Origin: Bacteroidota bacterium | GTDB taxonomy: Bacteria > Bacteroidota > Bacteroidia > Bacteroidales > PUMT01 | DNA: 64,000 bases | Reading direction: 5' to 3' | NCBI GenBank assembly: GCA_003551495.1 | Contig: PUMT01000231.1 | Location: 26,685 to 90,684 of the forward strand | Shown here: piece after piece, positions 2,704 to 49,087 of the stretch | How positions within the stretch are numbered: position 1 is the stretch's first letter | How the letters are laid out: each line of letters begins with the position of its first letter | Notes under the pieces: model-generated | What the model saw: the letters and a program-made list of their open reading frames with translations, nothing else | The model's database searches: none | Told to the model about the DNA's origin: nothing | Program-made: the position numbers and the translations under genes

Positions 2704-3129
2704 TTGGAAATATCTGTAATAATTCAGAATGTGCCGTTCAGGTACTACAGGAAACGTTTATTAAAGAGTTGGATAATTAGTACAATTAAAGAACTTAAAT
2801 TCGAAATAGGTTCTATTAATGTAATTATCACAAGCGACGAAGAACTTTTAATTTTCAATCAGAAATATCTCGGAAAAAATGAGTTTACTGATGTTATAGC
2901 TTTCGATTATACCGAAAGTGAAAGTATATCAGGAGATATATATGTAAGTATCGATAGAGTTCGGGATAATACACAAAAATATCAAACTACAATAATAGAT
3001 GAACTCGAAAGAGTCATTATTCACGGAGTACTTCATCTATGTGGATACAGTGATGATACAGATGTAGAAAAAGATAGAATGACAAAAATTGAAAATTATT
3101 TTATGTTAAAACGACCAGATTTGAAATGA
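2704..3129 (+). CDS. ybeY: rRNA maturation RNase YbeY
   Basis: 141 aa with the zinc motif HGVLHLCGYSD and typical YbeY length. The start codon appears to be TTG. Confidence 0.85.
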   Translation: MEISVIIQNVPFRYYRKRLLKSWIISTIKELKFEIGSINVIITSDEELLIFNQKYLGKNEFTDVIAFDYTESESISGDIYVSIDRVRDNTQKYQTTIIDELERVIIHGVLHLCGYSDDTDVEKDRMTKIENYFMLKRPDLK

Positions 3130-3271: not shown

Positions 3272-3467
3272 GAAAGCCACATCAGCCTTCGGCAAACAAA
3301 ATGAGATGTACAAACATGGGGGTTTGACCTTTGGTCGATTTCAAATGTAAACAAATGCTCTTTGAGTTTCTTAATCAGATTTGAAATGCATACGACAGGA
3401 AGAAATGAACTTAATTGACATACTATAATAGCTCATAGAATATTAGTTTAATTAACCTTGTTTGTAC
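3272..3467 (+). repeat. Intergenic repeat element, copy A (about 196 nt; candidate ncRNA or regulatory module)
   Basis: It aligns without gaps to 16071-16266, with roughly 20 substitutions by eye. The core at 3312-3387 is identical to 16111-16186. It contains a 9-bp inverted repeat (ATTTCAAAT...ATTTGAAAT) and a GACC-TTT-GGTC mini-hairpin. Confidence 0.8.
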
Positions 3468-3478
3468 TTATGAATCGT

Positions 3479-3531
3479 CCATGACGATATTTTCAATATC
3501 TTCACACAATTCAATGAAAATATTGTCATGG
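3479..3531 (+). promoter_or_regulatory. 17-bp-stem inverted repeat upstream of mnmG
   Basis: CCATGACGATATTTTCA (3479-3495) pairs with TGAAAATATTGTCATGG (3515-3531) with one G-U position and a 19-nt loop. There is no U-tract on either strand. Confidence 0.5.
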
Positions 3532-3584
3532 TAAGATACATAAGGCCAATTACTTAATAAAAATATTTTCTTATAAATACATTC

Positions 3585-5465
3585 ATGATATTAAATGGAA
3601 AATATGACGTAATCGTCGTAGGTGCCGGACACGCCGGCGCTGAAGCTGCTTGTGCAGCAGCCAAAATGTCATGCAAAGTTCTTCTTATAACTCCCGATTT
3701 GACCAAAATAGCTTTTATGAGTTGTAATCCTGCAGTAGGTGGCATAGCAAAGGGGCAGATAGTCAGAGAGATAGGTGCACTTGGCGGACAAATGGCTGAT
3801 ATCACGGATAAAACAATGATACAGTTCAGAATGCTGAACAAAAGTAAAGGACCTGCAATGTGGAGTCCAAGGGCTCAATGTGACAGAAGGTTGTTCACTT
3901 ATGAATGGAGGAAACGTGTTGAAGAATTTACAGAGATCGACTTAATACAGGATGCCGTTACTTCAATAATAATTGAAAATGAAAAATGCAAAGGAGTTAA
4001 TACCAGATCAGGTTTAAAATTTAAATCAGAATGTACTGTTTTAACGACTGGAACTTTTTTAAATGGGATTATACACATAGGCAATAAAAAGATAGAAGGC
4101 GGACGAATATCCGAAAATTCTTCAAAAGGAATAACCGAAACACTTCAAAAATACGGCTTTAAAACTTCAAGATTAAAAACAGGAACCTCACCAAGGGTTG
4201 ATGAACGTACAATTGATTATACAAAGCTAAAAATACAGGAAGGTGACGAAGAACCTGGTAAGTTTTCATTTGATAATGAAAATTGTAAAATTGAACAACA
4301 GGTACCATGTTATATAACCCACACAAATGAAAATGTTCACAATATCTTAAAAAAAGGGTTCAGTCAAAGTCCTCTTTTTACCGGAAGGATTAAAGGAAGA
4401 GGTCCCAGATACTGTCCCAGTATTGAGGATAAGTTAGTCACATTTCCCGAAAAGGATAGGCATCAATTATTTGTTGAACCTGAGGGGAAAGAAACATATG
4501 AGGTTTATATCAACGGGTATACAACATCTTTGCCTGTTGATGTACAAATAAACGGGTTAAGAAAAATTAAAGGGTTCGAAAATTTAAGGATCATTACACC
4601 CGGGTATGCCATAGAATATGATTTTTTCAATCCCACACAACTCAAACACTCTCTCGAAACTAAACTGATTGAAAATCTTTTTTTTGCCGGACAAATCAAC
4701 GGTACAACCGGTTATGAAGAAGCTGCGGCACAGGGTTTAATTGCTGGGATAAATGCAACACAGAAAATCAGAAAAAGAGAAGAATTCATTCTCTCGAGAG
4801 ACAAAGCATATATCGGGGTTTTAATTGACGATCTTGTAACAAAAGGTGTTGACGAACCTTATCGAATGTTTACTTCAAGATCAGAATTTAGAATTTTATT
4901 ACGGCAGGATAATGCTGATTCAAGATTGATGGAATATGGGTATAAATTAGAACTAGTAAGCCAAAACAGATACAATGAATTTCTGACAAAAAAAAATAAA
5001 ATCGATAATATTGTTAAATTTATCAAAAGTGAAAGTATTACTCCCAAAGAAGTTAACGAGCTCTTAATAAAGAAGAATACAACTGAAATTAAACAAAAGC
5101 AGAAAATTCAAGCCCTGCTTAAAAGACCTCAGATTAGTGTACATGACCTGATTAGTCAAATCAGTAGAATCAAATCAAAAATAGAAGAATTAAATGCGAA
5201 TAAGAAAAATCTGCTTGAAGAAGCAGAAATTTTAATCAAATACGAAGGATATATTGAAAGAGAGAAGAACATAGCAGAAAAAATTTCCAATCTAGAAGGA
5301 ATATTTATCAGAAATGATTTCGATTACGACGCTATTGACTCTATATCAACAGAAGCAAAACAAAAGTTAACAAGAATAAGACCCAAAACAATTGGCCATG
5401 CCAGAAGGATATCAGGTGTGTCCCCATCAGACATAAATATATTACTTGTACACCTTGGAAGATAG
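3585..5465 (+). CDS. mnmG: tRNA uridine-5-carboxymethylaminomethyl(34) synthesis enzyme MnmG (GidA)
   Basis: 626 aa with the N-terminal FAD motif YDVIVVGAGHAGAEAA, family-typical length, and the C-terminal GidA-associated region (ISGVSPSDINILLVHL). Confidence 0.95.
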   Translation: MILNGKYDVIVVGAGHAGAEAACAAAKMSCKVLLITPDLTKIAFMSCNPAVGGIAKGQIVREIGALGGQMADITDKTMIQFRMLNKSKGPAMWSPRAQCDRRLFTYEWRKRVEEFTEIDLIQDAVTSIIIENEKCKGVNTRSGLKFKSECTVLTTGTFLNGIIHIGNKKIEGGRISENSSKGITETLQKYGFKTSRLKTGTSPRVDERTIDYTKLKIQEGDEEPGKFSFDNENCKIEQQVPCYITHTNENVHNILKKGFSQSPLFTGRIKGRGPRYCPSIEDKLVTFPEKDRHQLFVEPEGKETYEVYINGYTTSLPVDVQINGLRKIKGFENLRIITPGYAIEYDFFNPTQLKHSLETKLIENLFFAGQINGTTGYEEAAAQGLIAGINATQKIRKREEFILSRDKAYIGVLIDDLVTKGVDEPYRMFTSRSEFRILLRQDNADSRLMEYGYKLELVSQNRYNEFLTKKNKIDNIVKFIKSESITPKEVNELLIKKNTTEIKQKQKIQALLKRPQISVHDLISQISRIKSKIEELNANKKNLLEEAEILIKYEGYIEREKNIAEKISNLEGIFIRNDFDYDAIDSISTEAKQKLTRIRPKTIGHARRISGVSPSDINILLVHLGR

Positions 5466-5482
5466 TGTTCCACGTGGAAACA
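5466..5482. promoter_or_regulatory. Palindromic motif TGTTCCACGTGGAAACA directly after the mnmG stop codon
   Basis: The 12-bp perfect palindrome core TTCCACGTGGAA lies at 5468-5479. The same core recurs at 5689-5700. Confidence 0.5.
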
Positions 5483-5676
5483 ATTAAGTTAATTTTCTAC
5501 ATTAACCAGTCATTTCTTAAATATTATTAAAACAGGATACCAAAGCATTATTGTTATAATATTTTCATAATTAAGAGTATGTTAAATTTATAATTTACGT
5601 AAGGGTTTGCATTTGCCTAAAAATATAGTTAATAACACATTTTATCAATATTATAGTTTAATTAAGCAAAACTAAT

Positions 5677-5712
5677 TAATTAATAATGTTCCACGTGGAA
5701 CATTATTAATTA
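5677..5712. promoter_or_regulatory. 36-bp perfect palindrome (candidate operator) upstream of the adenine deaminase gene
   Basis: TAATTAATAATGTTCCACGTGGAACATTATTAATTA was checked pair by pair and is a perfect palindrome. It ends 24 nt before the ATG at 5737. AAGGAGGTG at 5726-5734 is a strong SD-like site. Confidence 0.55.
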
Positions 5713-5736
5713 CACACACATAATTAAGGAGGTGTC

Positions 5737-12312: not shown

Positions 12313-13980
12313 TTAAGGTTGCAGCAGTGAATAGTAGTAGCTTTTATTATCCATTATTTCAATAGCATTATTAATGACAGGGTCATTATTCAACGAAGAT
12401 TTTATACGTCCGCTTTTAAAATAGTATCTTCCGGTAATCTCATCCTCGATTAATTCTTTTATCTGACCTTTAAATGTTAATAAATCTCTTTCCAGATTGT
12501 TGACCAATTTTCTCTTCAAAGCACTGAATTCATCCTTTGAAATATTATAATAGTTCTCGTTTTTTGCAGTTTCAATCAACTCATTCAGCTTCTTCTCGCT
12601 TTGACTTTCGTAATCAAATTCAATATTGCCCAGATAATCAATAAAATCATCATATTCCTCATCTGACAGGGAGAATTCTTCAGGAGCAGGAATTGATTTG
12701 TTATTTAGAGTGTAAAGTGTTGCAAAATCAAATATTATATTGCGGGAATAAAGGGTTGCTGCCAAATGGCTTAATTTTTCCGGACTAAGTTCAATATCGG
12801 GGGTAATTCCTCCTCCACCGGTTACTATTCTGCCGTTCATGGTTTTATAATCAGAAACCTCAGTATAGGTGGGGTTATTCGTATCGGGTTTTTCGGAAGA
12901 TCCCGAAAAATCATGCGCCTGAATACTTCTGCCGCTTGGAGTATAATATCTGGCAGTTGTGATTTTTATCTGGGCATTATAGCTAAGAGGCCTGGTAGTC
13001 TGAACAAGGCCCTTCCCAAATGTTCGCTGACCAACTATAACACCTCTGTCAAGATCCTGAATAGCCCCGGCAATAATTTCAGATGCCGAAGCGGAATTGT
13101 TGTTTACAAGTATAATTAAGGGAATATCACTATCCACAGGTTCATTTTCGGCTTTGTAAACATTATTCCATTGCTCAATTTTACCTTTAGTGCTTACTAT
13201 AGTGCTTCCTTTATCTACAAAAAAGTTTGAAATAAGAACTGCCTCTCTCATAAGGCCGCCCGGATTTCCTCTAAGATCCAAAACAAGTGATGAAATCTCA
13301 GTATTTATTTTTAGCTCTTCAAAAGCAGTCTTAACATCTTTATGAGCATCTTCTGTAAATCGGCTCAGTCTTATATATCCGGTATTATCTCCAATAATTC
13401 CGTGATATGTTACACTGTTCAGTCTTATTTCTTCTCTTTTAACACTAATTTTCCTGACTTCATCTTCACCGGGTCGCTTCAGTGAAAGCTCTATTGTGCT
13501 GCCTGGAAGCCCCTTCAATTTTTCGCTGGCTTGTTCCGGCTTCAATCCACTTACAGGCTCACCGTCAATTTCAGTAATAACATCTCCAATCAGTACACCC
13601 GATTTGTGGGCAGGGAAATTTTCATAAATATCTGTAATCAGATAGTATTCATCTTTTTTTTGTATCTGGGCGCCAATCCCACCGTAACGACCTGTAGTCA
13701 TTGTTTCAAAACTTTCCTTTTCAGATTCGGGAATAAAGGTGGTATAAGGATCCAGTGCATTTAAGACCCCTTCGATCCCATGCCTGATAATATCTTCGGG
13801 GTCTTTTTCATCAACATAAAATACATTTATTTCACGTATGAGTGAGAAAAAAATATCCAGGTTTTTGGTAAGCTTAAAATCCCTGTCTGTAAAACTCCAG
13901 AAAGTCAATGATAAAGATATTAGCAGGATTGAAAGCAGTGTTATGGTTCTGTTATTTTTCAAAAACAAAATAAGCTTCAT
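12313..13980 (-). CDS. S41 family C-terminal processing peptidase with PDZ domain
   Basis: It has a PDZ region (GIGAQI...GDVITEIDG), a catalytic region (NNNSASASEI...GQRTFGKG) and an N-terminal membrane anchor. The start is taken at ATG 13980 (MKLILFL). The track ORF extends to a TTG at 14037. Confidence 0.85.
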   Translation of the reverse strand: MKLILFLKNNRTITLLSILLISLSLTFWSFTDRDFKLTKNLDIFFSLIREINVFYVDEKDPEDIIRHGIEGVLNALDPYTTFIPESEKESFETMTTGRYGGIGAQIQKKDEYYLITDIYENFPAHKSGVLIGDVITEIDGEPVSGLKPEQASEKLKGLPGSTIELSLKRPGEDEVRKISVKREEIRLNSVTYHGIIGDNTGYIRLSRFTEDAHKDVKTAFEELKINTEISSLVLDLRGNPGGLMREAVLISNFFVDKGSTIVSTKGKIEQWNNVYKAENEPVDSDIPLIILVNNNSASASEIIAGAIQDLDRGVIVGQRTFGKGLVQTTRPLSYNAQIKITTARYYTPSGRSIQAHDFSGSSEKPDTNNPTYTEVSDYKTMNGRIVTGGGGITPDIELSPEKLSHLAATLYSRNIIFDFATLYTLNNKSIPAPEEFSLSDEEYDDFIDYLGNIEFDYESQSEKKLNELIETAKNENYYNISKDEFSALKRKLVNNLERDLLTFKGQIKELIEDEITGRYYFKSGRIKSSLNNDPVINNAIEIMDNKSYYYSLLQP

Positions 13981-14954: not shown

Positions 14955-15962
14955 TCAAATAACTACAACCTTGTTTTTGCAGTAAACACAGCAACCATCT
15001 TTATCTATGCCATCTGTTGATACATTATAACCCGTTCTTTCGATTACAAGGTTATTGCATTTTTTACATCGGGTATTGGATGAATCTGAGATCTCTCCGG
15101 TGTTACCTATATAAACGTAATTAAGTTTTGAAACTGCCAGGTTATAAAGCTTTTCCAGTGTTTCAACAGGGGTTGCCGGTATATTCATTCTGAATGCAGG
15201 GAAGTAGCGGTTTATGTGTAAAACAGTATCATTACCGGTTTCAGATACGATCCATCTGATCATTTCTGTGAACTCACCAGTATCATCATTAAGTCCCGGA
15301 ATAACCAGTAAGGTAACTTCCAGGTGCAGTCCCGCTTTTTTAATATCAATAATTCTGCTTTTTACTGGTTCGATATTTCCCGATACAAAATTTTTATAAA
15401 AAGAACTGTTAAATGATTTTAAATCAATATTAAAAGCATCAAATTGCTGAAGTATTAGTTTAAATGGTTCAGCATTAAGAAATCCGTTTGATACCAATAC
15501 ATTTTTCAAACCGTTTTCATGAGAAAGCTTTGCTGTATCCAATATATATTCAATCCAGATCAAAGGCTCATTATAGGTAAATGCTATACCTGTATTATCT
15601 TCTTGTTTTTTTGCATAAGTAACTATTTCTGCGGGAGAAGTAGATACGGCATTCGGGTATACAGACTCTTCGGGATGTGAAATATCACTGTTCTGACAAA
15701 ATCTGCAATTGAAATTGCATCCGAATGTACCTATTGAAAGAATATTTTTCCCGGGATTAAAGTGGTAAAGAGGTTTTTTTTCCAGAGGATCAAAATTGGC
15801 AGACAAAATTTTTCCATAATTTTCAGAGTATAAAATCCCTTTGTTGTTTACCCTGGAAAGGCAAATCCCTCTGGAACCCTCACTAATTTTGCAATTATGA
15901 GGACATAAGCGGCATACAACCCTTTTCTCCTCCTGTTGTTCAAAAAATAGAGCTTTCTTCAT
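14955..15962 (-). CDS. AmmeMemoRadiSam system radical SAM enzyme
   Basis: 335 aa with an N-terminal Cys cluster (CRLCPHNCKISEGSRGIC), the DPLEKKPLYHF motif and the radical SAM motif CNFNCRFCQN. Confidence 0.8.
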   Translation of the reverse strand: MKKALFFEQQEEKRVVCRLCPHNCKISEGSRGICLSRVNNKGILYSENYGKILSANFDPLEKKPLYHFNPGKNILSIGTFGCNFNCRFCQNSDISHPEESVYPNAVSTSPAEIVTYAKKQEDNTGIAFTYNEPLIWIEYILDTAKLSHENGLKNVLVSNGFLNAEPFKLILQQFDAFNIDLKSFNSSFYKNFVSGNIEPVKSRIIDIKKAGLHLEVTLLVIPGLNDDTGEFTEMIRWIVSETGNDTVLHINRYFPAFRMNIPATPVETLEKLYNLAVSKLNYVYIGNTGEISDSSNTRCKKCNNLVIERTGYNVSTDGIDKDGCCVYCKNKVVVI

Positions 15963-16070: not shown

Positions 16071-16266
16071 GAAAGCCCCATCAGCCTTCGGCAGACAAAA
16101 GGAGATGAAGAAACATGGGGGTTTGACCTTTGGTCGATTTCAAATGTAAACAAATGCTCTTTGAGTTTCTTAATCAGATTTGAAATTTATACGACACAAA
16201 GAAATGAACTTAATTGACATACTAAAATAACTCTTTGAATATTAGTTTAATTAACTTTGTTTGTAC
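16071..16266 (+). repeat. Intergenic repeat element, copy B (about 196 nt)
   Basis: This is the direct-orientation copy of 3272-3467, with its core at 16111-16186 identical to copy A. It lies in the 525-bp divergent region between the two radical SAM genes. Confidence 0.8.
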
Positions 16267-16487
16267 GAATGAACTAAAGTCCAAATTGGCCGTTTTAGTG
16301 CACAATTTTGACTGACAGGAGGAACCGCTTTGCTTTCCCATTAATTTTTTCATCCGTATGTGGCTGTTTTCGGATAAAAAAAATTCATGTACATTTGTTA
16401 TTTACAAGCATTTTATAGTAGTGAAGTCATAAAATTTTTCAATAAAACAAACCGTTAAAATGTATACACATATCAAAGCATGTAAGT

Positions 16488-17555
16488 ATGAAAATTCGAA
16501 GAAGACACTTTTGCCGTTATATTCTTGCTGCCGGAGCAGGCGGACTGATTCCCGTGTTGTTTTCACCATTTTCACTCTCTCTGGCGAGGGGAGCTAACCC
16601 GGGGAACAATAAAAACAATATGTTGACCAGTAATAGCAGCGAGCCGGGTTATGTAAACCTTCATCGTTCAGGAGAACTGAAGAAAAGGGCAGTCGTTTTA
16701 TGGGATATGATGCGTAACTGTACGTTGTGTCCAAGAAATTGCGGAACAAACAGGCTTAATAATCAAAGGGGTGATTGCAATGCATCGTCAGAGCTTGAAG
16801 TTTCCTCATTCAGTCCCCATTTCGGAGAGGAACCTCCTCTGGTCGGCAGAAACGGCTCAGGAACCGTTTTCTTTACAAACTGCAGTTTGTTATGTGTATT
16901 TTGCATAAACTGGGAAATCAGTCAGGGTGGAATGGGCCAGAAACGTACAATAAAGGAGCTTGCCAACATGATGCTGTTGCTTCAGCGTATGGGTTGCCAC
17001 AACATTAACGTAGTTTCGCCTACACATTATATTCCTCATATTTTGCTTGCACTTGATGAAGCGGTTCCTGCAGGTCTTAAAATCCCACTGGTTTATAATA
17101 CAAGCGGGTGGGAGAAAATTGAAGTGGTGCAAATGCTTGATGGAATAGTGGATATCTATTTAACAGATTTTAAATATTTCGATGGGCAAATGTCCGACAA
17201 ATATTCTCCCGGAGCAGCAAATTATCCTGAAGTTACCAAAAAAGCGATACTTGAAATGCACCGCCAGGTTGGAGTCGCCGATGCAACACCTGAAAAGGGA
17301 GTTATGAGCAAAGGCCTGATAATAAGACATCTTGTAATGCCGAACAATGTCGGGGGAACAAGGGAGGTGATCAACTGGATAGCTGAAAACCTGCCTGATG
17401 AAACTTATGTTAACATAATGTCTCAATACACACCTGTTTACAAAGCAGATCAGTATCCGCAAATAGCAAGACGAATTACAAGGTCTGAATATAATCAGGC
17501 TTTAAGGGCTGCCAGAAATGCCGGATTGAAAAATATTGATGCACAGCCAATGTAA
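16488..17555 (+). CDS. Radical SAM protein, PflX/COG1313 type, with a twin-arginine-like N-terminal extension
   Basis: 355 aa with CTLCPRNC, HFGEEPPLVG and the CxxxCxxC motif (CSLLCVFC). The N-terminus MKIRRRHFCRYILAAGAGGLIPVLFSPFSLSLA resembles a Tat signal. An alternative internal start is the ATG at 16620. Confidence 0.75.
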   Translation: MKIRRRHFCRYILAAGAGGLIPVLFSPFSLSLARGANPGNNKNNMLTSNSSEPGYVNLHRSGELKKRAVVLWDMMRNCTLCPRNCGTNRLNNQRGDCNASSELEVSSFSPHFGEEPPLVGRNGSGTVFFTNCSLLCVFCINWEISQGGMGQKRTIKELANMMLLLQRMGCHNINVVSPTHYIPHILLALDEAVPAGLKIPLVYNTSGWEKIEVVQMLDGIVDIYLTDFKYFDGQMSDKYSPGAANYPEVTKKAILEMHRQVGVADATPEKGVMSKGLIIRHLVMPNNVGGTREVINWIAENLPDETYVNIMSQYTPVYKADQYPQIARRITRSEYNQALRAARNAGLKNIDAQPM

Positions 17556-17656: not shown

Positions 17657-18106
17657 ATGATACAAGTAAGAGAAGCATTTTCTGATGAGGCTGGCACTAT
17701 TGCTCATTTTCAGGTTTTAATGGCAGAAGAAACGGAGGGGCTGAAACTCGACCCTGAGATGGTCAGAGATGGTGTTAATTCAGTATTTTCCGATCCATCA
17801 AAAGGGAAATATTACGTTGTTACAATAGGTGATACCATCGCTGGTTCATTGTTGACCACTTATGAATGGAGTGACTGGCGAAACAAATATTTTATCTGGA
17901 TTCAATCCGTTTATGTAAGTCAGCGTTACAGGGGTAAAGGAATGTTTTCTGAAATGTACATGAATATCAGGAAAATGGTCGAAAATTCCGATTCTTATGC
18001 TGGAATCAGGCTCTATGTTGACAAGGATAATCGTACAGCACGCAAAACGTACAGCAAACTGGGCATGATCGCTGACCATTATCAGCTTTATGAGTGGATC
18101 AGTTAG
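17657..18106 (+). CDS. GNAT family N-acetyltransferase
   Basis: 149 aa with the acetyl-CoA binding motif (VSQRYRGKGMFSEMY). Confidence 0.75.
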   Translation: MIQVREAFSDEAGTIAHFQVLMAEETEGLKLDPEMVRDGVNSVFSDPSKGKYYVVTIGDTIAGSLLTTYEWSDWRNKYFIWIQSVYVSQRYRGKGMFSEMYMNIRKMVENSDSYAGIRLYVDKDNRTARKTYSKLGMIADHYQLYEWIS

Positions 18107-32975: not shown

Positions 32976-33147
32976 AAAGTAAAGTTTGAATTAGTACTCT
33001 GGTTAAATAATATGAAGAATTATTTTCATTAAAGGTAAAAAATTCTTTTAATTACTGTGAAAAAAATACCTTCACTATTAAAATGCCTCAGCCAGTGGAC
33101 TATGCGGACTTGTTTAAAGAGCTATAAACATAAAAAAATATAAATAA

Positions 33148-33212
33148 ATGGGGGTTTGCCTGCATTAGTTTTCATTCGTACAAATGAGTTTTTTTTAACT
33201 GATTTTGAAAAT
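33148..33212 (+). repeat. Possible degenerate third copy of the repeat core
   Basis: It shares ATGGGGGTTTG, ACAAATG and GATTT(T)GAAA(A)T with the 76-nt core. The hairpin arms become TTTTCA / TGAAAA versus ATTTCA / TGAAAT in copies A and B. The alignment is hand-made and has gaps. Confidence 0.3.
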
Positions 33213-33251
33213 ATATTTATTTATTTTTATAGGGTAAAAATAGTATTATTG

Positions 33252-33874: not shown

Positions 33875-35293
33875 TTATTTCATAAGTGCCATTCTGCCGG
33901 CATCCATACGCAGGAGGACAAAAAGCATCAGGGTGAAAGACCAAAGGGATGATCCCCCGTAACTGATAAAAGGCAAAGGAATTCCAACGACCGGGACAAG
34001 ACCCAGTGCCATACCAATATTTATAGCAAAATGGAAAAAAAGAACCGAAACTGTGCAATAGCCAAAAATCCTGCAAAATACTGATCGTTGCCGCTCAGAA
34101 ATAAAAATAAGCCTTAACAGCAGTAATACAAATGCCAAAATTACTATAAATGTGCCGGCAAACCCCCATTCCTCGCCTATTGTGCAAAAAATAAAATCGG
34201 TGCTTTGCTCTGGAACGAAATCAAATTTTGTTTGTGTCCCCTGCATGAACCCTTTTCCCCATAGGCCCCCTGATCCTATTGCTATTTTGGATTGGTTGAT
34301 GTTATAACCATCTCCAAGCGGGTCGTTTTCAATACCCAGAATTACATTTATTCTTTTCTGGTGATGCGGCTGCAGTACATTATCAAAAATATAATCTGCA
34401 GAATAAGTAAACAGAAGAGAACCGAAAAGTATAAAAAGTACGGGGACAACGAATTTCAACCGGTGAATCAATACCAGTATCATATAGGGCAAAACAGAGG
34501 CTCCTGCAGCCAGCAAAAAAATATGCTCTGTTTTCAAACCCAGCGTGAAGATTGCATCAGTTGCTTTAATTATACCCCAAAAACCGCCCATTATGGACAG
34601 CCCCATAAAAAGGTACCTGAACCTGCGGCTCAAAATCAAGTATATGAAAGCAGAAAGAACCAGTATAATGAGTATCATATTCAATTCATTGAGCAGTAAT
34701 GCCAGAATAAAGAGTGCTACGAGGAGAATCCCGGCACCAATAACTACCGGCGAGAGTCCCTCCCGGTACAGTGCCAGCGAAAAAGATAAAAAAACTGCTG
34801 ATGATCCCACGTCGGGCTGCATCAGAATAAGCGAAACAGGCAGAAATATCATACCTCCAATCCTGAATAAATTGCGTGTATCGTTAATTCTCCCGGGAAA
34901 TGAATTCAAATATCTTGCAAGAACCAATGCAGTTGTAAGCTTTGCAAATTCAGCCGGCTGTATCTGGATGCCTCCAAACTGAAACCATGATTTTGAGCTG
35001 CTGACCTCTGTCCCGAAGAAAAGTACAGAAATCAACAACAGTATAGTTGTTGAATAAAACAAATATGAGAATACGTAAAAGAATTTGGTGTCAATAAGCA
35101 TAACCGTTACTGCCAGTATTAATGCCGCTCCAATCCAAATAATCTGCTTGCCGTAGCGTTCACCCGTATTCAGGATAGTTTGGTGGGATTCATCGTAAAC
35201 GGTTGAATAAATATTGAGCCAGCCGGCAAATACCAGCAGAAGGTAAATGATCACTGTCAGCCAATCAATATTTTTCAGCAGATTAGTCCTCAT
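33875..35293 (-). CDS. rodA: Rod shape-determining protein RodA (SEDS family)
   Basis: 472 aa, polytopic, with FtsW/RodA motifs (QPAEFAKL, PEQSTDFIF, GLVPVVGIPLPFISYGGSS). It lies downstream of mrdA. Confidence 0.9.
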   Translation of the reverse strand: MRTNLLKNIDWLTVIIYLLLVFAGWLNIYSTVYDESHQTILNTGERYGKQIIWIGAALILAVTVMLIDTKFFYVFSYLFYSTTILLLISVLFFGTEVSSSKSWFQFGGIQIQPAEFAKLTTALVLARYLNSFPGRINDTRNLFRIGGMIFLPVSLILMQPDVGSSAVFLSFSLALYREGLSPVVIGAGILLVALFILALLLNELNMILIILVLSAFIYLILSRRFRYLFMGLSIMGGFWGIIKATDAIFTLGLKTEHIFLLAAGASVLPYMILVLIHRLKFVVPVLFILFGSLLFTYSADYIFDNVLQPHHQKRINVILGIENDPLGDGYNINQSKIAIGSGGLWGKGFMQGTQTKFDFVPEQSTDFIFCTIGEEWGFAGTFIVILAFVLLLLRLIFISERQRSVFCRIFGYCTVSVLFFHFAINIGMALGLVPVVGIPLPFISYGGSSLWSFTLMLFVLLRMDAGRMALMK

Positions 35294-49005: not shown

Positions 49006-49087
49006 TGCGGATGGAGGGACTCGAACCCCCACGCCGTGAGGCACCAGATCCTAAGTCTGGCGCGGCTACCAATTACGCCACATCCGC
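49006..49087 (-). tRNA. tRNA-Leu (anticodon UAG)
   Basis: The reverse complement reads GCGGATG...CCAGACTTAGGATCTGG...GGGGGTTCGAGTCCCTCCATCCGCA. It has a 7-bp acceptor stem, an anticodon loop CTTAGGA, a long variable arm and a T-loop GGTTCGAGTCC. CCA is not encoded. Confidence 0.9.

Follow-up and report, generated by a model that had tools for sequence, protein, structure and literature searches.

A candidate modular insertion element without terminal inverted repeats, associated with TGAA(A) sites in uncultured Bacteroidales

Introduction

Several described classes of small intergenic element offer a comparison for a non-coding sequence that occurs twice in a 64,000-nt stretch of DNA from a Bacteroidota bacterium (assembly GCA_003551495.1, contig PUMT01000231.1, positions 26,685 to 90,684; hereafter, the window). 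The pneumococcal BOX and enterobacterial ERIC repeats form families with tens to hundreds of copies per genome; their modules can be missing or repeated, they are predicted to fold into stable stem-loops, and they lie between and near genes, with which they are often co-transcribed. The element described here is likewise modular, stem-loop-forming and intergenic, but it has no sequence relationship to either family, and we know of no BOX/ERIC-type repeat that rebuilds a start codon or carries a 70-nt invariant centre. With miniature inverted-repeat transposable elements (MITEs) and the Correia/NEMIS elements it shares a small size, a non-coding and intergenic nature, several copies, proximity to genes, co-transcription, possible promoter-like sequences and internal deletions. 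Unlike these, it lacks terminal inverted repeats (TIRs), its flanks carry direct repeats of 3–9 nt that resemble TGAA(A) rather than duplications of arbitrary sequence with a fixed length, and its copy number is apparently very low; among the classical features of a MITE, only insertion polymorphism is found, while TIRs and a fixed-length target-site duplication are missing.

Two further classes are closer in particular respects. Insertion sequences of the IS200/IS605 family have no TIRs, use a short conserved target, and show an orientation bias of the kind expected for insertion into the lagging-strand template (PMC5027513, PMC3201880). The element resembles the non-autonomous, ORF-less derivatives of this family, the palindrome-associated transposable elements (PATEs), in having neither TIRs nor a fixed-length target duplication, in its length of 200–300 nt, and in being non-coding; it resembles the family at large in apparently lying beside a short conserved tetra- or pentanucleotide (here TGAA), in having folded structures on one ("top") strand, and in its consistent orientation relative to neighbouring genes. 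Putative mobile promoters are highly similar non-coding sequences found upstream of non-homologous genes in one genome, some families of which cross species; Matus-Garcia, Nijveen and van Passel (2012) considered non-autonomous mobile elements and recombination as routes by which they spread (PMC3488235). This operational definition covers our element, the two window copies of which lie upstream of mnmG and a radical SAM gene and further copies of which lie, in another species, upstream of argR, htrA and gldF. However, putative mobile promoters are a descriptive category rather than a mechanistic class, and the only perfect promoter box in the element points away from the downstream gene.

Here we report that the element is probably a low-copy, modular, non-autonomous insertion element without TIRs, whose top strand is structured and whose target or core is TGAA(A), and that it is found in a few related uncultured Bacteroidales.

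Results

Empty and filled sites

Public collections were scanned with exact patterns of the element, and profile searches covered individual loci (referred to by the locus designations L001 to L024). Comparisons of orthologous spacers at htrA, ybeY-mnmG and spoIID-gldF reveal an insertion polymorphism. In the clearest case, htrA, the dapF-htrA spacer of L010/L009 (HtrA 76% identical) is 162 nt long, and it and the 166 nt that precede the element in L003 align over their full lengths. A conserved -7 box (TATATTTG) is part of the alignment, and CATGAAA closes both sequences; in L003, exactly 197 additional nt follow, and then a second ATGAAA, which is the start of htrA. Relatives with 65–67% identity in HtrA lack the element, and three further assemblies of the species to which L003 belongs carry the htrA insertion unchanged. 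The ybeY-mnmG spacer measures 456 nt in the window versus 170 nt (L007) and 143 nt (L008) in syntenic relatives that have no copy there, and taking out positions 3272-3573 shrinks the window spacer to ~150 nt. Similarly, the spoIID-gldF spacer is 331 nt in L005 versus 145 nt and 52 nt in relatives whose GldF is 88% and 80% identical, respectively; its promoter-proximal part is conserved, and the element-bearing block is extra in L005. We consider these comparisons to have shown that the element is inserted DNA with defined ends that is absent from the orthologous spacers of relatives.

An earlier reading of the window from its sequence alone (the sequence-only reading) had set aside a mobile-element origin for want of TIRs. 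Their absence is real: an inverted-repeat search of both copies with their flanks found no pair joining the two ends, and the left end (GAAAGCCCCATC) and right end (TTTGTACGAATGAA) have no complementarity. The dismissal itself does not stand, however, as empty and filled sites show insertion, and truncated, core-less and head-to-tail forms exist.

Several other origins were considered and rejected. No match was found among phages and plasmids using blastn in "distant" mode, and four exact-pattern scans of viral contigs (core, M1 and M4; see below) found none. The two window copies are not attachment (att) sites of a 12.8-kb island, because the DNA between them is conserved housekeeping synteny (mnmG-ade-uvrC...) that is present in relatives without the repeats. 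Nor are they the template and variable repeats of a diversity-generating retroelement, since the substitutions are not adenine-specific and neither copy is in a gene.

Copies within and beyond the window

Direct alignment and a repeat finder (family D1) show that positions 3272-3474 and 16071-16273 (copies A and B, Table 1) are 92% identical over 203 nt with no gaps, and lie 12,799 nt apart. The end-to-end, ungapped alignment described in the sequence-only reading was thus borne out, while its length of 196 nt required correction; the copies reach 3474 and 16273, and both terminate in ATGAA (3470-3474 and 16269-16273). The 76-nt stretch reported as identical (3312-3387 and 16111-16186) was reproduced by alignment, and a 30-nt piece of the core has two exact occurrences in the window versus none in 100 shuffles. 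The downstream genes (mnmG and a radical SAM gene) are also those originally named: copy A lies between the genes for YbeY and MnmG, and copy B occupies the divergent spacer between radical SAM genes at 14955-15962 (-) and 16488-17555 (+).

Table 1. Positions of the element, its modules and related short sequences in the window
Feature	Position	Strand	Setting	Details
Copy A (M1-M2-M3)	3272..3474	+	spacer of ybeY (2704-3129) and mnmG (3585-5465)	nhmmer E = 3e-62; covariance model 144 bits
Copy A, M1 (5' stem-loop)	3272..3317	+		P1 = AAAGCCACAT (3273-3282) with ATGGGGGTTT (3316-3325)
Copy A, M2 (70-nt core)	3318..3387	+		P2, GACC 3326-3329/GGTC 3333-3336; P3, ATTTCAAAT 3338-3346/ATTTGAAAT 3379-3387
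Copy A, M3 (AT-rich 3' arm, ~85 nt)	3388..3474	+		TTGACA-18 nt-AATATT; motif AATATTAGTTTAATTAA at 3439-3455
Copy A, 3' extension	3475..3573	+		M4 (GTCATGGTAAGATACATAAGGCCAATTA..., 3523-3573) with a 47-nt palindromic expansion inside
Copy B	16071..16273	+		M1 16071-16116; M2 16117-16186; M3 16187-16273
Isolated M3-type motif	5647..5665	+	upstream of ade	AATATTATAGTTTAATTAA (AATATTA-TA-GTTTAATTAA)
Short, apparently rearranged relic	33148..33184			ATGGGGGTTTGCC (+, M1/core junction, one mismatch), 9 nt on an exact 14-mer TTTGTACGAATGAA (-)

Outside the window, an exact 21-mer of the core matched one of 185,579 species representatives, on two contigs of the metagenome-assembled genome (MAG) Bacteroidales bacterium CSSed162cmB_490, and a second core 22-mer matched three contigs of one sediment metagenome, representing the two loci of this MAG and a third. 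The copies in this species lie upstream of argR (L002/L004), htrA (L003/L006) and gldF (L005), and the genes at these loci have no homologue in the window. Sequence and structure profiles added (i) in L007, a relative with the same ybeY-mnmG-ade-uvrC synteny, a shortened copy; (ii) a core-less copy at a contig end (L020); (iii) a diverged copy upstream of pfk (L021); and (iv) two diverged pieces in L024. Copies therefore exist in at least four other Bacteroidales lineages, beside unrelated neighbours (argR, htrA, gldF, an open reading frame of 96 amino acids, and the pfk and dnaN regions), and all of them are co-oriented with the downstream gene. GC content is 38.6% in the window, 35% in L007/L008, and 42% in the CSSed species, and the nearest homologue of the window MnmG among 5.8 billion proteins is only 66% identical; by these comparisons the window genome is an isolated lineage. 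From their sample names, the hosts look like soda-lake organisms. To judge from unbiased flanking sequence, intact cores may be far outnumbered by degenerate copies.

The contigs of L024 and L020 end inside copies (13755-13892 and 4105-4230, respectively), upstream of where dnaN sits in L021, and the window-derived Logan contig L001 begins inside M4; the repeat family evidently breaks assemblies.

Module anatomy

The element consists of a 5' stem-loop (M1), a 70-nt core (M2), an AT-rich arm that ends in ATGAA (M3), and an optional 3' extension (M4), and measures ~200 nt in its short form and ~300 nt with M4. M1, of ~46 nt, starts with GAAAGCC or GAAACCC, and its first ten bases pair with the terminal G-run ATGGGGGTTT (helix P1); the inverted-repeat search detected the equivalent pair in copy B. 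The same search recovered the GACC-TTT-GGTC hairpin (P2) noted from the sequence, and the 9-nt inverted repeat with a 32-nt spacer was found where it had been described, in copy A as in Table 1 and in copy B at 16137-16145/16178-16186. This repeat yields helix P3, of 9–10 bp, and M2 also holds an inner CTC-TTT-GAG hairpin. M4 (~50 nt, GTCATGGYAAGATACATAAGGCCAATTA...) lies 3' of the element in copy A, L005 and L020, and may, tentatively, be the decayed start of a second unit. Modules vary among copies: the left module of L005 is an unrelated one, M1 of L002 is expanded by 40 nt, L007 is 12 nt shorter in the P3 loop and retains little of M3, and L020 lacks the core.

In copy A, M4 is split by a palindrome with 17-bp arms (3479-3531; CCATGACGATATTTTCA/TGAAAATATTGTCATGG, arms at 3479-3495 and 3515-3531), which is absent from M4 of L005 and L020; a terminator scan picks up a short stem (3474-3488, followed by ATTTTCAATA) in the left arm of the palindrome.

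Some weaker matches may also belong to the family. A covariance-model match in the pheT/surE spacer of L024 (6041-6149, minus strand; 27 bits, E about 0.01), in which P1 has become UUUUUU/AAAAAA and P2 GGC/GCC, retains CAGACA, CGATTTC and TCAGAT and may be a member that diverged long ago. Three weak M1-like matches in L007 (18055-18088 (+), 20371-20401 (-) and 3790-3819 (-); E = 0.01–0.03), containing CATCAGCCTTGGGCTG or GGCAGACAGAATGATAT, could be chance matches, terminator-like hairpins or old relics. The match at 18055 also has a protein-like likeness to the peptide of a short frame in M1 (SSIGRQNDIKK versus SAFGRQKEMKK; E = 0.013).

Junctions and start codons

The left junctions read TTGAA in copy A, AAGAA in copy B, ATGAA in L002, L003 and L005, and TTGAA in L007, while the right end is ATGAA in five copies, L005 having AAGAA instead. 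As a putative PATE-type target, TGAA is present at the left flank in five of six junctions, including that of L005 with its unrelated left module, and at the right end in five of six copies, although the left TGAA is contiguous with the element and a recombination core would fit as well. The flanking direct repeats, of 9 nt at argR in L002 (GATGAAAGC), 6 nt at htrA in L003 (ATGAAA), 5 nt in L007, 4 nt in copy A and 3 nt in copy B, all resemble (A)TGAA(A), and no fixed-length duplication of arbitrary target sequence is seen. Judged from sequence, the junctions look like a short, specific target or crossover core that is also carried at the element's own end.

Head-to-tail insertion would follow from a target core carried at the end, and L024 contains a head-to-tail junction (...TTTATACGAATGAA/TTCCCCAT...), in which a right end is directly joined to an M1-like stem-loop (TTCCCCAT...ATGTGGGGAA) and a P2-like hairpin. 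In the window, a 14-nt M1/core pattern has four matches versus 0.09 expected. The short sequence at 33148-33184, which sits in the divergent spacer 32976-33251 and includes a 14-mer identical to the right end of copy B (0.08 expected by chance), looks like either a rearranged relic or a right-end/left-end junction of the family. A one-mismatch match to the M1/core junction on the minus strand at 34156-34169 (ATGGGGGTTTGCCG), inside the coding region 33875-35293, is probably coincidental.

Because the element ends in ATGAA, its landing in ATG-AAA rebuilds a start codon. This is what is observed at htrA and argR in the CSSed MAG species, where the old ATG then opens a short upstream frame that is not conserved and terminates within the core. 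A different account, which we regard as unlikely, is an undescribed site-specific mobile element whose targets would be TGAA(A)/ATGAAA sequences, among them codons one and two of genes, and whose own end would re-create the start codon. Its invariant 70-nt centre, perhaps a guide- or bridge-like RNA or else a recognition site in folded single-stranded DNA, would direct or license mobilisation by an enzyme encoded elsewhere, and the element would also act as a portable leader for the captured gene.

Constraint on the core

Pairwise identity in M2 is 96–100% (five copies, two genomes), whereas canonical M1 is 78–89% identical and M3 is 87% identical within a genome and only 65–71% identical between subfamilies. 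The proposed contrast between a frozen core and drifting flanks thus extends across genomes that differ in GC content and in their proteins. Since the arms have diverged by ~30% while the 70-nt stretch has accumulated 0–3 changes, the core cannot be neutral, and by this measure it is constrained, whatever its history of transfer.

This constraint, which far exceeds that on the arms, makes it highly improbable that the repeat is inert, whether as a recent segmental duplication or as a product of gene conversion in one genome. The 92% identity of two copies only 12.8 kb apart would suit such an origin, but the same core occurs in other genomes at unrelated loci, a result that also disposes of the recent local duplication envisaged at the outset as the alternative to a conserved element. 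Equally improbable is a degraded or very small protein gene. A short frame (…SAFGRQKEMKKHGGLTFGRFQM, then a stop) is open in some copies, as read from the sequences, and ends in the core; however, copy B lacks a start codon for it, the frame is broken by a stop in L007 and shifted in L002, and L005 does not have it at all. Furthermore, the core has no synonymous-type variation, and nothing is shared beyond ~26 codons. Consistent with the initial view that the element is non-coding, no reading frame is consistently conserved among the copies, and a small open reading frame or leader peptide was rejected for this reason.

Predicted structure

On the + strand, a fold comprising P1, P2 and P3 is predicted for most copies. 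This strand is more stable than the antisense in all six core-containing copies, the reverse being true of the M1-only fragment in L021, and several helix pairs that are G-U on the + strand are mismatches on the other. These features, together with the very strong constraint on the core, would be expected of a structured RNA, either a set of sibling small RNAs or a portable cis-acting leader, with M1-M2 forming three helices and a protein, RNA or ligand binding to the core; copies in the DNA would then be by-products of the duplication or transfer of RNA genes. We consider this explanation doubtful. On neither strand is the minimum free energy significantly below that of shuffled sequence (z-scores of -0.2 to -1.3), and the predicted folding could apply to RNA or to single-stranded DNA.

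The comparative evidence is similarly divided. The six clear homologues include no pair with changes on both sides, and P1–P3 are thus neither supported nor refuted by them. A compensatory change of two pairs (AAA/UUU to GG/CC) preserves P1 in L021, where homology of the loop is clear, and inspection by eye indicates a C-G to U-A change in P3 of L007. When two weak 27-bit hits (E about 0.01) are added, 19 of 27 pairs change on both sides, a value matched by none of 500 shuffles, but the covariation depends on these two hits and on an alignment fitted to the structure, and is suggestive only. The original suggestion that selection acts on an RNA structure or a protein-binding site is therefore tentative: the helices fit the sequences, but covariation is absent among clear homologues and emerges only with the weak, model-fitted hits. 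Hammerhead-like motifs on the minus strand were rejected by eye, as the core pairs do not fit.

As anticipated in the sequence-only reading, the element corresponds to no Rfam family, scans at gathering and permissive thresholds giving no credible match to it. The only Rfam match in the window is a tRNA-Leu at 49006-49087 (also the only ARAGORN tRNA/tmRNA match), six copy-bearing loci gave none, and permissive scans of copy A and L005 returned chance-level miRNA and leader matches far below threshold.

Position relative to promoters also bears on the RNA explanation. The element in L003 lies between the conserved native promoter and htrA, and must therefore be transcribed there. In contrast, the predicted -7 box of the gene downstream of copy B (TACATTTG, about 16390) lies downstream of the element, as does the predicted promoter in L005. 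The element thus occupies no constant position within transcription units, an observation that speaks against a classical 5' untranslated region riboregulator, as do downstream genes that are functionally unrelated and whose start codons lie 0 to 215 nt away. Moreover, there is no conserved promoter upstream of M1 and no terminator after it, and core-less copies persist.

Promoter-like signals

Bacteroidetes-type -7 boxes (TAnnTTTG) are present upstream of several genes of the window genome. The sole perfect conserved -7 box in the element, TACATTTG, is on the minus strand (3342-3349 in copy A) and forms one arm of the inverted repeat, the other arm of which reads CAGATTTG on the + strand. This box is kept in the five full-core copies, and the truncated L007 copy has TACATTTA. 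Both window copies contain TTGACA-18 nt-AATATT, and TAACTTTG occurs near the right end of copy B, but these + strand signals are not shared across subfamilies.

These signals could be taken to mean that the element is a mobile promoter or regulatory cassette, in which a palindromic core would carry a factor site and, in either arm of the inverted repeat, a putative outward -7-like box ((T/C)A(C/G)ATTTGAAAT), and the AT-rich arm would provide a translation initiation region and start codon, thereby rewiring expression of the downstream gene. Besides the conserved box, its similarity to boxes of window genes and the less conserved + strand signals, this idea is favoured by the uniform orientation towards the downstream gene, by the way in which the element abuts and rebuilds the start codons of htrA and argR, and by a CAAATG that, as read from the sequence, is repeated one helical turn apart in the core. 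Nevertheless, we judge it decidedly unlikely: the + strand has no conserved, correctly spaced -33/-7 pair across subfamilies, the only perfect box faces the wrong way, 70 invariant bp far exceed the needs of a promoter and one operator, and L003 keeps its native promoter upstream, so that a new one is not required. Neither the RNA nor the mobile-promoter explanation is incompatible with mobility.

Other observations in the window

The short motif noted upstream of ade is real and non-random, with three matches versus none expected. Its surroundings at 5647-5665 show no wider similarity to the element, local alignment being no better than with shuffled sequences, and a wider relic of the element at this site was rejected on these grounds; the motif could be either a relic or a shared motif of regulatory or promoter regions.

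A 16-nt palindrome, TGTTCCACGTGGAACA, with a CACGTG centre occurs twice (5466-5481 and 5687-5702, one with two mismatches; 0 expected by chance), bracketing the mnmG-ade spacer, and Logan contig L001 breaks there; the pair may be an operator pair or a hairpin. A strong Shine-Dalgarno-like AAGGAGG (5722-5736) lies 4 nt before the ade start codon, which is unusual for Bacteroidota; most window genes have AT-rich leaders without such a motif. The GC content of the window climbs steadily over positions 1-64000, from about 31% in the first 4 kb to about 44% in the last 4 kb.

Discussion

If the element is indeed a non-autonomous insertion element, it would owe its movement to an enzyme acting in trans, one that recognises folded DNA and a short TGAA(A) core or target rather than TIRs. 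The candidates that we favour are a single-strand HUH/Y1 transposase (IS200/IS605-like, "peel and paste") and a site-specific recombinase that integrates an excised circle. The use of G-T/G-U pairs in its helices would make the + ("top") strand the active one. The invariant core would be read by a trans-acting partner, either the mobilising protein or, if the element is a portable expression module, an RNA- or DNA-binding factor. Insertions would persist only where their orientation and position allow the AT-rich arm and terminal ATG to keep the downstream gene expressed. The Pfam lists for the 10-kb flanks of the copies include no transposase or recombinase domain, which fits a non-autonomous element.

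Several observations nevertheless weigh against this interpretation, and some of them also separate the element from the IS200/IS605 family. (i) Neither an autonomous partner nor a mobilising enzyme, and specifically no cognate TnpA/TnpB element with the same ends, was found in the 10-kb copy flanks or by the exact-pattern scans. (ii) Conservation is strongest in the centre rather than at the ends, and the ends lack similar subterminal hairpins of the IS200/IS605 kind; only the left end has a stem-loop (P1), and the right-end hairpin is not conserved between subfamilies. (iii) The exact-pattern scans indicate two to three intact cores per genome, which is low for a proliferating element. (iv) The left TGAA runs into the conserved GAAAGCC of P1 and is not cleanly separable from the element, so that independent evidence on it is confined to L005, with its unrelated left module, the htrA empty site and the L024 junction. 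(v) The near-identity of the core across lineages could stem partly from recent horizontal transfer and not from selection alone. (vi) Microhomology-mediated recombination between ATGAAA sequences could produce the same junctions without a dedicated enzyme. Such junctions would also result if a site-specific recombinase integrated an excised circle.

In addition, the right end of the element carries the same TGAA as its target, which is not usual among studied members of the IS200/IS605 family. In IS608, for example, the two sequences differ (TTAC versus TCAA). Membership of the IS200/IS605 family is therefore not established.

If an insertion element of this kind is correctly identified, the family would be a compact case of non-coding DNA that moves within and between the genomes of uncultured bacteria without TIRs and without disrupting genes, even at a start codon. 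In practical terms, it causes assembly breaks and mis-called short open reading frames in these MAGs. The contrast between a nearly invariant 70-nt centre and arms that drift fast would then point to a sequence read by a partner acting in trans, and the identity of this partner, whether transposase, recombinase or regulator, could reveal a new mechanism of mobilisation or gene rewiring in Bacteroidota.

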